Origin: Eledone cirrhosa | Lineage: Eukaryota | Assembly: GCA_964016885.1 (NCBI GenBank) | Contig: OZ024756.1 | Location: forward strand, 24,924,001 to 24,988,000 | Reading direction: 5' to 3' | Length of the DNA: 64,000 bases | Shown: one piece after another, positions 1 to 61,134 of the stretch | Layout: each line of letters opens with the position of its first letter | Position numbering within the stretch: position 1 is the stretch's first letter | The notes under the pieces: model-generated | The model's input: only the letters and a program-made list of their open reading frames with translations | Database searches by the model: none | What the model was told of the DNA's origin: nothing | Program-made: the position numbers and the translations under genes

Positions 1-60
1 ATATATATATATATATATACTATATAGATATACATTATATATATACATATATATATATAG

Positions 61-125
<65 letters not shown>

Positions 126-129
126 TACA

Positions 130-215
<86 letters not shown>

Positions 216-516
216 CATATATATATATACATATATATATATACATATATATATATACATATATATATACATATATATATATACATATATATACATATAC
301 ATATATACATATATACATATACATATATACATATATACATATACATATATACATATATATACATATACATATATACATATATACATATATATACATATAC
401 ATATATACATATATATACATATATATACATATATATACATATATAGTATAGTATATACATATTTATACATATATACATATATATACATATATATATATAT
501 ATATACATATATATAC

Positions 517-571
<55 letters not shown>

Positions 572-963
572 CATATATATATATACATATATATATATAC
601 ATATATATATATACATATACATATATATATACATATATATATATACATATACATATATATATATACATATATATATATACATATACATATATATATATAC
701 ATATATACATATACATATATACATATACATATATATATATACATATATATATATACATATATATATACATATATACATATATATATATACATATATATAT
801 ACATATTATATATACATATATATATATACATATACATATATATATATACATATATATATATACATATATATATACATATATACATATATATATATACATA
901 TATATATATACATATATATATATACATATATATATATACATATATATATATATACATATATAC

Positions 964-1010
<47 letters not shown>

Positions 1011-1245
1011 CATATATATATATACATATATGCATATATATATATACATATATATATATACATATATATATACATATATATACATATATATATACATATA
1101 TATATACATATATATACATATATATATACATATATATACATATATATATACATATATATATACATATATATACATATATATATACATATATATACATATA
1201 TATATACATATATATACATATATATATACATATATACATATATAC

Positions 1246-1278
<33 letters not shown>

Positions 1279-1347
1279 CATATATATATACATATATATA
1301 TATACACATATATATATACATATATATATATACACATATATATATAC

Positions 1348-1400
<53 letters not shown>

Positions 1401-1525
1401 CATATATACATATATATATACACATATATATATATATACATATATATATATACATATATATATATACACATATATATATATATATACATATATATATACA
1501 TATATATATACATATATATATATAC

Positions 1526-1620
<95 letters not shown>

Positions 1621-1743
1621 CATATATATACATATACATACATATACATATACATACATATACATATACATACATATACATATACATATACATACATATA
1701 CATATACATATATATACATACATATACATATACATATATATAC

Positions 1744-1784
<41 letters not shown>

Positions 1785-1823
1785 TATATACATATATATA
1801 TATATATACATATATACATATAC

Positions 1824-1876
<53 letters not shown>

Positions 1877-2037
1877 CATATATATATATATACATATATA
1901 CATATACATATATATATATACATATATACATATACATATATATATATACATATATATATATACATATATATATATACATATATATATATATACATATATA
2001 TATATACATATATATATATATACATATATATATATAC

Positions 2038-2102
<65 letters not shown>

Positions 2103-2191
2103 CATATATACATATATACATATACATATATATATATACATATATATATATATACATATATACATATATACATATATATATATACATATAC

Positions 2192-2236
<45 letters not shown>

Positions 2237-2519
2237 CATATATATATACATATATATACATATATATATACATATATATACATATATATACATATATATA
2301 CATATATATATACATATATATATACATATATATACATATATATATACATATATATACATATATATATACATATATATATACATATATATACATATATATA
2401 CATATATATATACATATATATACATATATATATATACATATATATACATATATATATATACATATATATATATACATATATATATATACATATATATATA
2501 TACACATATATATATACAC

Positions 2520-2580
<61 letters not shown>

Positions 2581-2685
2581 CACATATACATATATATATA
2601 CATATATATATATACATATATATATATACATATATATATATACATATATATATATACATATATATATATACATATATATATATAC

Positions 2686-2716
<31 letters not shown>

Positions 2717-2849
2717 CATATACATATATATACATATACATATACATACATATTTACATACATATACATATACATATACATACATATACATATATATATA
2801 TACATATATATATATAAACATATATATATATAAACATATATATATATAC

Positions 2850-2880
<31 letters not shown>

Positions 2881-2881
2881 C

Positions 2882-2912
<31 letters not shown>

Positions 2913-2913
2913 C

Positions 2914-2946
<33 letters not shown>

Positions 2947-3347
2947 CATATATATATACATATATATATATATACATATATATATACACATATATATATA
3001 TACATATATATATACATATATATATATACATATATATATACATATATATATATATACATATATATATATACATATATATATATACATATATATATATACA
3101 TATATATATATATACATATATATATATACATATATATATATACATATATATATATATACATATATATATATACATATATATATATATACATATATACATA
3201 TATATATATACATATATATATATACATATATATATATACATATATATATCTACATATATATATACATATATATATATATACATATATATATCTACATATA
3301 TATATATATATATATCTACATATATATATACATATATATATATATAC

Positions 3348-3392
<45 letters not shown>

Positions 3393-3463
3393 CATATATA
3401 TATATACATATATATATATACATATATATATATACATATATATATATACATATATATATATAC

Positions 3464-3494
<31 letters not shown>

Positions 3495-3589
3495 CATATA
3501 TATATATACATATATATATATACATATATATATATACATATATATACATATATATATATACATATATATATATACATATATATATATAC

Positions 3590-3622
<33 letters not shown>

Positions 3623-3647
3623 TACATATATATATACATATATATAT

Positions 3648-3872
3648 GGTGGCTGCCAACTCGTTTTCGAGTACGGCCACTACTTTATATCCATGTAGGA
3701 GAACCCCTACCGATGCGCTGAACGAGTGTGACTTTTTAGTCCAGCCAGCGACTTGAAAACTCTGGTACAAACACTACACTTGTGACAATTACTGACACAT
3801 AGTGCTGGGCCCATGGTACCATGTGACGACAAGTGCAGAGAGATCTCCAGATATAAAGCAATGCCTGTGCCG
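3648..3872 (-). mobile_element. 5'-truncated copy of an RTE-derived non-autonomous element (3' end with C2H2-like remnant)
   Basis: Matches 27644-27868 with 3 substitutions; minus frame reads [23 protein letters not shown], followed by a short 3' UTR running into TA/TATG repeat. Confidence 0.85.
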
Positions 3873-4007
3873 CATATATATATATATATACATATATATA
3901 CATATATATATACATATATATATATACATATATATACATATATATATACATATATATACATATATATATACATATATACATATATATATACATATATACA
4001 TATATAC

Positions 4008-4052
<45 letters not shown>

Positions 4053-4104
4053 TATATACATATATATATACACATATATATATACATATATATATATACA
4101 CATA

Positions 4105-4136
<32 letters not shown>

Positions 4137-4263
4137 CATATATACATATATATATATACACATATATATATATACATATATATATATACATATATATATA
4201 TACACATATATATATATATATACATATATATATACATATATATATATACATATATATATATAC

Positions 4264-4376
<113 letters not shown>

Positions 4377-4463
4377 CATATACATACATATACATATACA
4401 TACATATACATATACATACATATACATATACATATACATACATATACATATACATATATATAC

Positions 4464-4504
<41 letters not shown>

Positions 4505-4543
4505 TATATACATATATATATATATATACATATATACATATAC

Positions 4544-4592
<49 letters not shown>

Positions 4593-4651
4593 CATATATA
4601 TATATATACATATATACATATACATATATATATATACATATATATATATAC

Positions 4652-4700
<49 letters not shown>

Positions 4701-4787
4701 CATATATATACATATACATATACATACATATACATATACATACATATACATATACATATACATACATATACATATACATATATATAC

Positions 4788-4828
<41 letters not shown>

Positions 4829-4867
4829 TATATACATATATATATATATATACATATATACATATAC

Positions 4868-4918
<51 letters not shown>

Positions 4919-5019
4919 CATATATATATATATACATATATACATATACATATATATATATACATATATATATATACATATATATATATACATATATATA
5001 TATACATATATATATATAC

Positions 5020-5050
<31 letters not shown>

Positions 5051-5095
5051 CATATATATATATACATATATATATATATACATATATATATATAC

Positions 5096-5126
<31 letters not shown>

Positions 5127-5427
5127 CATATATATATATACATATATATATACATATATATATATACATATATATATATATACATATATACATATATACA
5201 TACATATATATACATATATATATACATATATATACATATATATACATATATATATACATATATATACATATATATATACATATATATACATATATATATA
5301 CATATATATATACATATATATACATATATATATACATATATATACATATATATATATACATATATATACATATATATATATACATATATATATATACATA
5401 TATATATATACATATATATATATACAC

Positions 5428-5486
<59 letters not shown>

Positions 5487-5575
5487 CACATATACATATA
5501 TATATACATATATATATATACATATATATATATACATATATATATATACATATATATATATACATATATATATAC

Positions 5576-5606
<31 letters not shown>

Positions 5607-5825
5607 CATATACATATATATACATATATATACATATACATATACATACATATTTACATACATATACATATACATATACATACATATACATATATATATA
5701 TACATATATATATATAAACATATATATATATACATATATATATATAAACATATATATATATACATATATATATACATATATATATATATATACATATATA
5801 AATACATATATATATATATATATAC

Positions 5826-5870
<45 letters not shown>

Positions 5871-5947
5871 TATATACATATATATATATATACATATATA
5901 TATACACATATATATATATACATATATATATACATATATATATATAC

Positions 5948-5978
<31 letters not shown>

Positions 5979-6053
5979 CATATATATATATACATATATA
6001 TATATACATATATATATATATACATATATATATATACATATATATATATATAC

Positions 6054-6098
<45 letters not shown>

Positions 6099-6245
6099 CA
6101 TATATATATATATACATATATACATATATATATATACATATATATATATACATATATATATATATACATATATATATACATATATATATCTACATATATA
6201 TATATATATATATCTACATATATATATACATATATATATATATAC

Positions 6246-6290
<45 letters not shown>

Positions 6291-6471
6291 CATATATATA
6301 TATACATATATATATATACATATATATATATACATATATATATATATACATATATATATATACATATATATATATACATATATATATATACATATATATA
6401 TATACATATATATATATACATATATATATATACATATATATATACATATATATATACATATATATATATAC

Positions 6472-6504
<33 letters not shown>

Positions 6505-6529
6505 TACATATATATATACATATATATAT

Positions 6530-6753
6530 GGTGGCTGCCAACTCGTTTTCGAGTACGGCCACTACTTTATATCCATGTAGGAGAACCCCTACCGATGCGC
6601 TGAACGAGTGTGACTTTTTAGTCCAGCCAGCGACTTGAAACTCTGGTACAAACACTACACTTGTGACAATTACTGACACATAGTGCTGGGCCCATGGTAC
6701 CATGTGACGACAAGTGCAGAGAGATCTCCAGATATAAAGCAATGCCTGTGCCG
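6530..6753 (-). mobile_element. Second copy of the same truncated RTE-derived fragment (part of the tandem duplication)
   Basis: Identical to 3648-3872 except one missing A (GAAAAC vs GAAAC); same truncation point. Confidence 0.85.
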
Positions 6754-6888
6754 CATATATATATATATATACATATATATATACATATATATATATATAC
6801 ATATATATACATATATATACATATACATATATATACATATATATACATATATATACATATACATATATATACATATATATACATATAC

Positions 6889-7005
<117 letters not shown>

Positions 7006-7307
7006 GCATATATACATATATATATACATATATACATATATATATACATATATATATACATATATACATATATACATATATATATATATACATATATATA
7101 TACATATATATATACATATATACATATATATATACATATATACATATATACATATATATATACATATATACATATATATATACATATATACATATATATA
7201 TACATATATATATACATATATATATACATATATATATACATATATACATATATATATACATATATATATACATATATACATATATATATACATATATATA
7301 TATATAC

Positions 7308-7352
<45 letters not shown>

Positions 7353-7359
7353 TATATAC

Positions 7360-7390
<31 letters not shown>

Positions 7391-7473
7391 CATATATATA
7401 TACATATATATATATATACATATATATATACATATATATATACATATATATATATATATACATATATATATAC

Positions 7474-7524
<51 letters not shown>

Positions 7525-7537
7525 CATATATATATAC

Positions 7538-7806
<269 letters not shown>

Positions 7807-7819
7807 CATATATGTATAC

Positions 7820-7878
<59 letters not shown>

Positions 7879-7891
7879 CATATATGTATAC

Positions 7892-7922
<31 letters not shown>

Positions 7923-7935
7923 CATATACGTATAC

Positions 7936-7966
<31 letters not shown>

Positions 7967-8021
7967 CATATACGTATACATATATATATACATATATATA
8001 TATATATACATATACATATAC

Positions 8022-8055
<34 letters not shown>

Positions 8056-8061
8056 ATATAC

Positions 8062-8112
<51 letters not shown>

Positions 8113-8113
8113 C

Positions 8114-8275
<162 letters not shown>

Positions 8276-8276
8276 G

Positions 8277-8446
<170 letters not shown>

Positions 8447-8482
8447 TACACATATATATATATATGTATATATGTATATATG

Positions 8483-8518
<36 letters not shown>

Positions 8519-8562
8519 CATATATATATACACATATATATATATGTATATATATATATATG

Positions 8563-8640
<78 letters not shown>

Positions 8641-8670
8641 TATACACATATATATATATGTATATATGTA

Positions 8671-8725
<55 letters not shown>

Positions 8726-12590: not shown

Positions 12591-12848
12591 TATTAAAATA
12601 ACAGATTAAAGTTTAAGCAAAGAATCACTGCTTTCACCCTTAACGGGCGGGATCTTCTGAAACTAAAAATTATTAAAATAACAGATTAAAGTTTAGTTTC
12701 AGAAGATCCCGTTAAGGGTGAAAGCAGTGATTCTTTGCTTAAACTTTAATCTGTTATTTTAATATTTGCTCTAGGGTTCTTATATATTTTATATATATTT
12801 ATCCTTATCGAGCCCTCTTTGGATTTTAGTCTTCACATTTATTATTAT
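12591..12848 (+). mobile_element. Fold-back element with variant hammerhead fold (family D)
   Basis: Inverted arms ~12591-12667 and 12692-12764; AGTTT-CAGAAGA-TCCC.GGGT-GAAAGCA..TGCTT-AAACT at 12695-12745; other copies at 24074, 25568 and 57582. Confidence 0.7.
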
Positions 12849-30849: not shown

Positions 30850-31125
30850 ACGATAGATAAGAGAGGCCACGTGTTGTCCCTCTCTGACTAAAAACTTTCC
30901 ACCTTGGAAAACCCCCAGTTGATGGATCCGAAATCCGAAATATAGGGACAATTAAATCACTTCCAAGGTAACTCTATCTCGCGTTATTATTTTTACATTC
31001 TTTCCTACGTTCCACTACACCCTCTAGTTCTCATTCTAGATTCCCTCTTACATCTCTCTCATTACCACCTGATTCTGTTACTCGGAGATTTACCTATCTG
31101 CATTGTTGAGGCTTCCAAAACGACC

Positions 31126-31162
<37 letters not shown>

Positions 31163-31510
31163 TATTGAAGTTTGCTTGAAGCATTGTGGAATAATAGGTA
31201 AATATCTTTAAGCCGTTTGGAAGCCTCGACAATGCAAATGGGTAAATCTCCGGGTAACAAGATCCAGTGGTGGAGAGAGAGATGTAAGTGGGTGTACGTT
31301 GAGATGCGTGGTGTGTATAAGACGTGTAGAGGAATGAAGGAAAGAGTAAAAAGGATAAAATAAAAATAACAACACGAGAGAGAGTTACCTTGGGAGAGAT
31401 TTAATTGTCCCTATATATTTCGGATTCACATCCATCAACTGGGGTTTTTTTCCGGGGTGGGGGAAATGTTGTCTGTCGGAAAGGTGCGAAACGCGTCCTC
31501 CGCTGTTTGT
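30850..31510. mobile_element. Tail-to-tail pair of diverged copies of one element around a (TA)n (family G)
   Basis: 30890-31122 is the inverted homolog of 31216-31470, with blocks such as CCCCAGTTGATGGAT, GGGACAATTAAATC, CCAAGGTAACTCT, CGGAGATTTACC and GAGGCTTCCAAA. Confidence 0.8.
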
Positions 31511-31546: not shown

Positions 31547-31612
31547 CCAGCGAATTTTCAACCATCGAGGTTGTTTTCCATGGTTATGTCACTATTTATA
31601 AAACAAATTTTG

Positions 31613-31677
31613 TATTTTATCTGATGAAAGCACACCAAGATTGGCTTGGTCGCCCTTGAAATATATATAATAAAATA
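31613..31677 (+). ncRNA. Type I minimal hammerhead ribozyme (family H) within a (TA)n-flanked element at 31547-31812
   Basis: Stem I TATTTTAT/ATAAAATA; core CTGATGA; stem II AAG..ACCAAG/CTTGGT..CTT; GAAA; palindromic stem III TATATA; UA cleavage site after 31669. Confidence 0.8.
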
Positions 31678-31808
31678 ATTATGGTTTTATAAATATAGTT
31701 TCCATTTATTAATATATTGAATATTTACTCCAGTAAACTGTTGAGTGCTCTATATCAGTTATAAACTTTTAAGTTTGTTGGAATCCCAACAAATTAAATA
31801 TAACTTCT

Positions 31809-31884
<76 letters not shown>

Positions 31885-52434: not shown

Positions 52435-52567
<133 letters not shown>

Positions 52568-58002: not shown

Positions 58003-58676
58003 GGCCACTTTTCAGTGTGGACTGGGTGCTTTTTTGCCGTGGCACCTACACGACCACTTTGCAGTGGAATGATAGGGACCCCAGCCCTATCATCTCATTT
58101 CTACAGCTGAGTAAACTGAAGCAATGTGAAATAAAGTGTCTTGCTCAAGTAAACAACACAACTCTCAGACTGGGTGGTGTGTTGTTTACTTGAGCAAGAC
58201 ACTTTATTTCACATTGCTTCAGTTTACTCAGCTGTAGAAATGAGATGATAGGACTGGGGTCCCTATCATTCCACTGTAAAGTGGACGTGGAGGTGCCATA
58301 GAAAAAAAGCACCCACCACTCACTGTAAATGAGGTTTGTGTTAGGAAGGGCATCCAGCTGTAGAAATCAAGCCAGAATCAGTTCCTGTCTCACTCTTGCA
58401 AACAGGGAAAATGAGATGATAGGACTGGGGGTGTCTATCATTCCACTGCAAAGTGGTCGTGGAGGTGTCATGGCAAAAAAGCACCTAGTCCACACTGTAT
58501 ATGAAGTTGGTGTTAGGAAGGGCATCCAGCTGTAGAAATCAAGCCAGAATCAGTTTCCGTATGAGCAAGACAAGGTCAGCCGACCGGACACTGCCCACAA
58601 CAGGACAACCCGTCTAACCCATGCTAGCGTGGAAGAACGGACGTAAAACGGTGATGATGATGATGATGATGATGAT
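58003..58676. mobile_element. Composite SINE B: head-to-head inverted pair plus a tandem third segment
   Basis: 58015-58160 is inverted against 58179-58315; a second body and alternative tail follow at 58408-58676. Confidence 0.88.
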
Positions 58677-60662: not shown

Positions 60663-60664
<2 letters not shown>

Positions 60665-61108
60665 CGATATTAAACAAATGGAAACTATATTTATAAAACC
60701 ATATTTATTTCGTTATATATATTTCTGGGATATCATATTAAAAATATGGTATGCCTTCCTCAGACAAAATACAATATATAAGCTGTTTTATAAATAAATT
60801 TGACATACCTTAGAATAATGCAACTTCCATTTAAAAAGTTGATTTGGAAGTTAAATGGAAGTTGCATTATTCTAAGGTATGTCAAATTTATTTATAAAAC
60901 AGCTTATATATTGTATTTTGTCTGAGGAAGGCATACCATATTTTTAATATGATATCCCAGAAATATATATAACGAAATAAATATGGTTTTATAAATATAG
61001 TTTCCATTTGTTTAATATCGTAAACCTACTCCAAAAACTGTTGAGTGCTTTTATATCAGTTATAAAATATTTACTCGTTGTAACCCAACAATTTTAAATA
61101 AAACTTTT
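60663..61108 (+). mobile_element. Family H element: perfect 172-bp palindrome plus 3' tail, with a hammerhead fold in each arm
   Basis: Arms 60663-60834 and 60851-61022; folds at 60914-60979 (+) and 60706-60771 (-): TATTTTGT-CTGAGGA-stem II-GAAA-TATATA-TA-ACGAAATA; homologous to 31590-31770. Confidence 0.85.
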
Positions 61109-61134
61109 GCATATATATATATATATATATATAC

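Follow-up and report, generated by a model that had tools for sequence, protein, structure and literature searches.

Two short, diverged sequences in the window, the whole stretch of 64,000 nucleotides from Eledone cirrhosa that was analysed, read like hammerhead ribozymes. The questions they raise are whether their fold has been kept by selection, to which genetic element it belongs, and how it would act. The window sits on contig 17 of a 3.0-Gb assembly. Positions are those of the window, and the position names (10.1, 11.1, A17 and others) follow the hammerhead numbering.

Hammerhead copies in the window

Copy A is a type I hammerhead at 31613-31677 on the plus strand. Read directly from the letters, stem I is formed by TATTTTAT (31613-31620) and ATAAAATA (31670-31677), the core by CUGAUGA (CTGATGA, 31621-31627) and GAAA (31658-31661), and stem II lies between the core parts (31628-31657). 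TATATA (31662-31667) and TA (31668-31669) follow, the palindrome AUAUAUAU spans 31661-31668, and a cut after 31669 is predicted. Copy B, also of type I and on the plus strand, occupies 60914-60979, with stem I TATTTTGT (60914-60921) and ACGAAATA (60972-60979), the core part CTGAGGA (60922-60928), and a predicted cut after 60971. The CUGANGA...GAAA core is present and the core triplet of the window copies is AUA, which fits NUH. All letters and coordinates given for the two copies in the initial annotation are in place, as are the A-T to G-C double change and the wobble in stem I and the single core difference at the free position (N7). Both copies of its inventory are real, but a third had been overlooked. 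This copy (60706-60771, minus strand) is identical to B and lies inside a 172-nt inverted 5' arm of the B insertion (60663-60834, minus strand), which is 100% complementary to 60851-61022.

The stem II helices quoted in the initial annotation (ACCAAG/CTTGGT and CATATT/AATATG) exist, but they are only the distal parts of the stem. Counted from the core, stem II starts with three pairs and then has a C.C mismatch at pair 4 (C10.4 at 31631 and C11.4 at 31654 in copy A, 60932/60956 in copy B, plus strand), all of which had been left out. Pair 10.1-11.1 is A-U in copy A and an A.A mismatch in copy B (60929/60959, plus strand), and thus G-C in neither. In copy A pair 10.5 is broken by a G>A change at 31632 that is rare (2/30, copy A counted, and 2/41 aligned copies). 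Rfam gave no hammerhead among 9 matches at E<=10 for 31560-31720, and none among the 150 of 440 matches listed for the whole window, where microsatellites produced miRNA matches below the gathering score only. The term "canonical" was therefore not appropriate for a motif without G10.1-C11.1, with a loopless stem III and a fixed stem II mismatch, and with no Rfam hammerhead match.

The host fragments are short. Copy A is part of a lone 265-nt fragment (31547-31811, plus strand), the 5'-truncated 3' end of a family A element (part of its terminal repeat, pLTR) between two (TA)n tracts. Copy B is part of the 5'-truncated 3' end of a young family B element (60851-61111, plus strand) with (TA)n at its end. 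The motifs at the B locus point in opposite directions, so that there is no double hammerhead on one strand, and judged from the sequence a transcript of B would be trapped in a 172-bp hairpin. All three copies of the window are probably inactive, since they are truncated and have no same-strand partner nearby.

The two copies share 78% identity over 223 nt. Their contrast alone offers a single double change plus a single wobble; keeping 12 core letters invariant at this identity has a p of about 0.05, and the folding z-scores of the 65-nt copies against shuffles (-0.20 and -0.66) are not significant. An outer extension of stem I is predicted in copy A between ATTTATAAAAC (31594-31604) and GTTTTATAAAT (31684-31694, plus strand), but it is identical in A and B and thus shows no covariation between them. 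By themselves, copies A and B are weak evidence for structure. In 31 family A segments, found via the upstream sequence, private changes were counted at 7 of 362 positions in the core, 35 of 1,391 in the stems, and 142 of 4,561 elsewhere. The rate in the core (1.9%) is not significantly lower than in the flanks (3.1%; Fisher p 0.26, with a second p of 0.13), so that no clear selection is seen after insertion; selection acted on the source elements.

Several other features lie in the window. Nested inverted repeats at 30940-31416, just before copy A (arms 30940-30995/31361-31416 and 31043-31119/31216-31292), are probably another element. Further long fold-backs are found at 58009-58329 (160-nt arms), 12617-12737, and 52435-52552, and an 8.7-kb degenerate (AT)n/ATAC array fills 1-8722.

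The host element

Families A and B are both dispersed repeats; scoring 40 of 2,481 candidates gave 51 matches for A, and scoring 40 of 1,937 gave 63 for B. A common 3' end followed by (TA)n was reached in 27 of 30 family A loci and in 28 of 30 family B loci; the 5' ends are ragged and an inverted 5' arm is frequent. The inverted arms have a fixed end of their own, at the position equal to 61022 in 11 of 13 family B arms and within 31722-31727 in 12 of 16 family A arms, and (TA)n insertion targets were seen in the flanks of 60 loci. Longer family B copies contain a 1.3-kb UTR and then an RT and GIY-YIG frame of about 740-750 codons, which is open over 749 codons in full-length relatives. The motifs of the family B frame are RIRWR, SDKT, YRDD, CNCRDRSKC, CDLC, and CRH (locus L100 has RIRWR, SDKT, CNCRDRSKC, CDLC, and CRH), and the frame of L259 contains RLRWI, SDKT, CNCRIKNKC, CNLC, and CLH. 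Longer family A copies reach a GIY-YIG frame with 44-70% identity to that of family B in tblastn segments (59% in L080), and the TGCGCA family likewise leads into such a frame. L167 is an A-like pLTR-ORF-pLTR unit whose two hammerheads lie on the same strand at a distance of 3,676 nt, and the same build is found in L259 (3,940 nt apart) and L260 (3,709 nt), which belong to a family at about 48% protein identity. In L167, L259, L260, and L100 the hammerheads are located within the pLTRs that flank the RT and GIY-YIG ORF. The elements are 3.7-3.9 kb long, and the predicted cut site precedes the ATG by about 190 nt and the fixed insertion end by about 140 nt. At the level of sequence, these loci establish the hammerhead as part of the pLTR of Hydra-clade Penelope-like retrotransposons, the assignment to Hydra being made by motifs, targets, and architecture, with published Hydra sequences compared by eye. 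Pfam detected no families in three protein pieces of the element, and a quick protein tree (35 rows, one of them a runaway, with neither a named reference nor an outgroup) did not resolve the octopod families at its base and was set aside. Of 52 protein hits two are named, with Argonauta among them, which fits an octopod host, as do genome size and microsatellite load.

The Hydra clade was described by Craig et al. 2021, including Hydra-1_Obim of Octopus bimaculoides (PMC8557442). Its members and the present families alike have a C-terminal GIY-YIG domain and RW(K/R), DKT, CxCX5C, CxxC, and CxH motifs, (TA)n targets, inverted 5' arms, and a 3'-end hammerhead with a near-palindromic stem III of 8-10 nt. 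They are also alike in the frequent absence of G-C at 10.1-11.1, with U.U in many rows of File S2. Hydra elements are generally shorter than 3 kb, which is a tendency and not diagnostic, in contrast to 3.7-3.9 kb here. The present families are distinct from Hydra-1_Obim, for which a hammerhead with other stems is listed, and their long stem II has a fixed mismatch at pair 4, where no C.C is seen in the rows that File S2 tabulates for Hydra.

Because most copies are short and non-coding, one might think of non-autonomous retrozymes or SINE-like units that spread as small circles. Such non-LTR retrozymes, as outlined by Cervera and de la Pena 2020 (PMC7229834), also bear type I hammerheads and reach very high copy numbers (up to 120,000 in axolotl), but they are short non-coding tandem repeats, whereas the present hammerheads are the ends of coding elements. 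The variable 5' ends of both families run into the coding Penelope ORF, and no hammerhead-bearing short tandem arrays were found among 60 loci. Retrozyme identity is contradicted for families A and B by the continuation of their units into a coding element, and for the motif as a whole we regard such an origin as scarcely credible.

The pattern TCTGANGAN{22,44}GAAATATATATA has 34,504 matches in the genome compared to 72 for the reversed pattern. Together, three disjoint stem III classes comprise 34,504 + 22,468 + 35,038 exact matches against 72 + 5 + 23 in reversed controls, thus about 92,000 cores (31 per Mb) against 100 control matches. Inverted and tandem arms add a second motif, so these totals count motifs and not elements. 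About 9,000 motifs were given for Xenopus tropicalis in PMC4209133, with search methods that differ from ours.

Some loci have peculiarities of their own. In L064, L100, and other full-length B copies the element reads ATATAT just past the fixed 3' end, which could pair with the nicked (TA)n target. Several family B frames (L061, L062, L063, L064, L068) are broken at one and the same short poly-C run in the RT thumb-linker interval. At L038:1772-3205 the B 3' end, starting inside the hammerhead, is repeated in tandem at least nine times in units of about 160 nt, with (TA)n between them. Beside family B copies we observed a 1,016-codon open frame of an endonuclease-RT element (L068:3570-6617, minus strand), which we take to be RTE-like, and helicase fragments (L065:2663-4486), presumably Pif1/Helitron-like. 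In the family B copy at L065:6420-8361 (near 158.95 Mb of contig C3, the same locus as L059), A>G changes of the sense strand occur in a cluster. They number 39 compared to 2 T>C against the column majority and 44 compared to 4 against a sister copy, mostly after A or T, and this is the only such locus among 64 segments. This looks like A-to-I editing of an RNA intermediate that would have been fixed by reverse transcription. General A-to-I editing as the driver of the wobble changes was rejected because the A>G excess is restricted to this one locus (2/64 segments), with totals of 232 A>G and 237 T>C.

Covariation across families and the stem II mismatch

A search that demanded no pairing in stems I or II yielded 364 hits (249 distinct, 38 clusters), from which 27 natural representatives were kept and 11 clusters dropped that were junction-broken, internally duplicated, or redundant. 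In the alignment of these representatives, in which stem III was pre-filtered, 88.2% of 567 cells are paired and double changes occur at 18 of 21 pairs (16 of 17 in stems I and II). None of 500 shuffles matched that pairing, a control that overstates the significance because the representatives are related, and slid registers are paired to 31-49%. The number of further pair types is no better than in shuffles (202/500). The pairing fits the form without a bulge between 9 and 10.1 (31-33% for 1-nt slides), and only some B-like variants would also permit a bulged register. The stem I pair that changed from A-U to G-C between the window copies is AU in 15, GC in 7, and GU in 4 cases, and its G.U state thus occurs in sister families. 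G.U outnumbers A.C by 19 to 6 in stem I but only by 15 to 9 in stem II. Selection on RNA structure, as proposed in the initial annotation, is supported by the families, although not by the two-copy comparison it was drawn from.

Could the compensatory changes reflect mere shared descent of a repeat and drift in AT-rich sequence? For individual copies this is a fair description, given that core protection after insertion is not significant (p 0.26) and the folding z-scores are near zero. As an explanation of the families it is highly improbable in view of the family-level covariation, the slid-register controls, and the excess of G.U over A.C in stem I, the weaker one in stem II included.

The exception to the pairing is pair 4 of stem II, which is unpaired in all 27 representatives and C.C in 23 of them; pairs 1-3 and 5-10 covary. 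Genome-wide, C.C is found in 31,414 of the 34,504 members of the TATATA class (91%) and C-G in 180. For comparison, 46 distinct non-octopod hammerheads were drawn from 52 of 76 metagenome relatives, a few of which may be false. Although the filter allowed a mismatch at pair 4, it is paired in 44 of them and C.C in none. G-C occupies pair 10.1-11.1 in only 7 of the 27 representatives and the young family B has A.A there, which speaks against cutting as a dimer. In 23 of the 46 metagenome hammerheads the pair is U.U; a pair other than G-C is, judged from the sequences, usual for the Hydra clade.

One type with C-G at pair 4, and with stem II thus fully paired, forms a small subfamily. All nine of its copies that were taken from the first 100 of the 180 (L355-L363) have common flanks and are distributed over four contigs, and eight of the nine have G10.1-C11.1. 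This closed-pair subfamily has transposed and C.C is thus not essential; the idea that C.C is required for mobility is contradicted by its spread. A conserved partner for the C.C site was not apparent by eye in the alignment. The site lies at roughly the point where stem II docks onto stem I in type I hammerheads. Most likely the mismatch would provide a flexible contact by which folding or the binding of a protein is tuned; it is favoured but not essential.

Dimer-type hammerheads of Penelope-like elements have been published (PMC4209133), and these are likewise of type I, located in pLTRs, with a long helix II and a palindromic helix III, present as many covarying families per genome, and predicted to act as dimers. 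In their consensus G10.1-C11.1 is conserved and an extra base precedes stem II, while the present ones are mostly without both. The literature thus already reports hammerheads of the dimer type from Penelope pLTRs, from the Hydra clade, and from a Hydra element of an octopus. In the literature searched, with passages of PMC8557442, PMC4209133, PMC11167929, PMC7229834, and PMC6765202 compared, we found no description of the present set of families or of the C.C mismatch in stem II.

Stem III and cleavage of the element RNA

Stem III is an 8-nt palindrome without a loop, of which a monomer can form at most 2 bp. With the six letters left free, the first 100 of 38,416 matches, counted by eye and as copies rather than events, contain TGCGCA 59 times, TATGTA 21, TATATA 11, TACGCA 4, and TACGTA 2 times, and TGTGCA, TATGCA, and TAGGTA once each. 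Allowing for wobble, 94 of these 100 are self-complementary, and the central pairs are U-A, U.G, and C-G. In the monomer the central letters would be a loop, but they vary in a paired manner, which favours a stem III formed by two molecules. At the sequence level, the stem III variants of the families support the earlier suggestion that the palindrome points to action as a dimer. Relative to two monomer hammerhead folds, the dimer hammerhead fold gains 11-26 kcal/mol of stability in all seven copies folded. However, the hammerhead fold is never the minimum-energy structure in any of the seven, either as monomer or as dimer, which counts against cutting as a dimer; the monomer hammerhead folds are 3-6 kcal/mol above the minimum. 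Near 2597 of L097 (minus strand) there is a different hammerhead, in which the palindrome, A-CCGCGCGG-T, is longer and pair 4 is not mismatched.

An ordinary monomer cutter would have a 2-bp stem III that owes its stability to the long stems I and II and to a tertiary contact at C.C. The long outer stem I and the position of the mismatch near the presumed docking place would agree with this, but the paired changes of the central stem III letters (U-A, U.G, C-G) and the energies of the monomer folds make it very unlikely. In addition, a minimal Penelope-like hammerhead reported in PMC4209133 was uncut as a monomer.

We consider it probable that the motif is a type I hammerhead in the Hydra-clade terminal repeat that cuts the element RNA only when two copies pair via the palindromic stem III. 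In a full-length pLTR-ORF-pLTR transcript, the two same-strand hammerheads, 3.7-3.9 kb apart, would join their 8-nt palindromes in one shared helix. Each paired hammerhead would then cut after A17 and free a unit-length RNA. The insertion end is about 140 nt beyond the cut, so the template of reverse transcription would have to be uncut or re-ligated RNA, with which slow, probably protein-assisted cleavage would be compatible. Metazoan Penelope-like hammerheads are described as inactive as monomers and slowly cutting as dimers (PMC4209133). For the PAc hammerhead of the anole Poseidon element, Frangieh et al. 2024 report that cleavage needs the protein of the element and that reverse transcription starts from two internal sites (PMC11167929). 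PAc is a Penelope-like hammerhead too, and its long and short ends from the two RT start sites resemble the two fixed ends found here, but it belongs to another clade and its cut is 26 nt inside the ORF instead of about 190 nt before the ATG. Against the dimer-cutting mechanism, ribozyme mutants of the anole element left in vitro insertion unchanged, and none of the RNA-seq reads had an end at the cut site (PMC11167929).

The same mutants would fit a fold retained chiefly because it serves a protein of the element itself or of the host as a binding or folding element, with cleavage marginal or dispensable. G-C at 10.1-11.1 in just 7 of 27 representatives and the fixed insertion ends 140 nt past the cut site would be explained as well. 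However, the catalytic core is kept across families with less than 50% protein identity and in 52 of 76 distant loci, in searches that required the core, and the core position that varies is the free one (N7), so that we regard this explanation as unlikely.

Splicing might also concern the hammerhead. A candidate splice-donor-like GTATGT follows AG at 60877-60882 (within 60874-60884, plus strand), 45 nt before the copy B core, and GTAYGT is present 26-45 nt before the core in 13 of the 27 representatives. Copy B has an acceptor-like TTTTATATCAG after the hammerhead, and copy A has GGTTATGT instead. If these words were used, the hammerhead would fall within a 5' UTR intron.

Returning to dimer-dependent cutting, a speculative and rather unlikely extension is that octopod Hydra elements have evolved a gated hammerhead, in which the C10.4.C11.4 contact with the element's own protein or with stem I would slow cleavage until the RNP is assembled and thereby raise copy number. 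The closed-pair subfamily would be the ungated form and, with its C-G and G10.1-C11.1 pairs, a ready-made natural control.

The role of the hammerhead in Penelope-like elements is stated as an open question in PMC8557442 and PMC11167929. The about 92,000 motifs of this genome (31 per Mb) escape Rfam. The genome offers young families, open frames of 740-750 codons, tens of thousands of copies, and several palindromes that are linked by G.U states. Together with the natural subfamilies with and without the mismatch, this would make it easy to test side by side whether cutting depends on dimers, whether protein assists it, and what the mismatch does.
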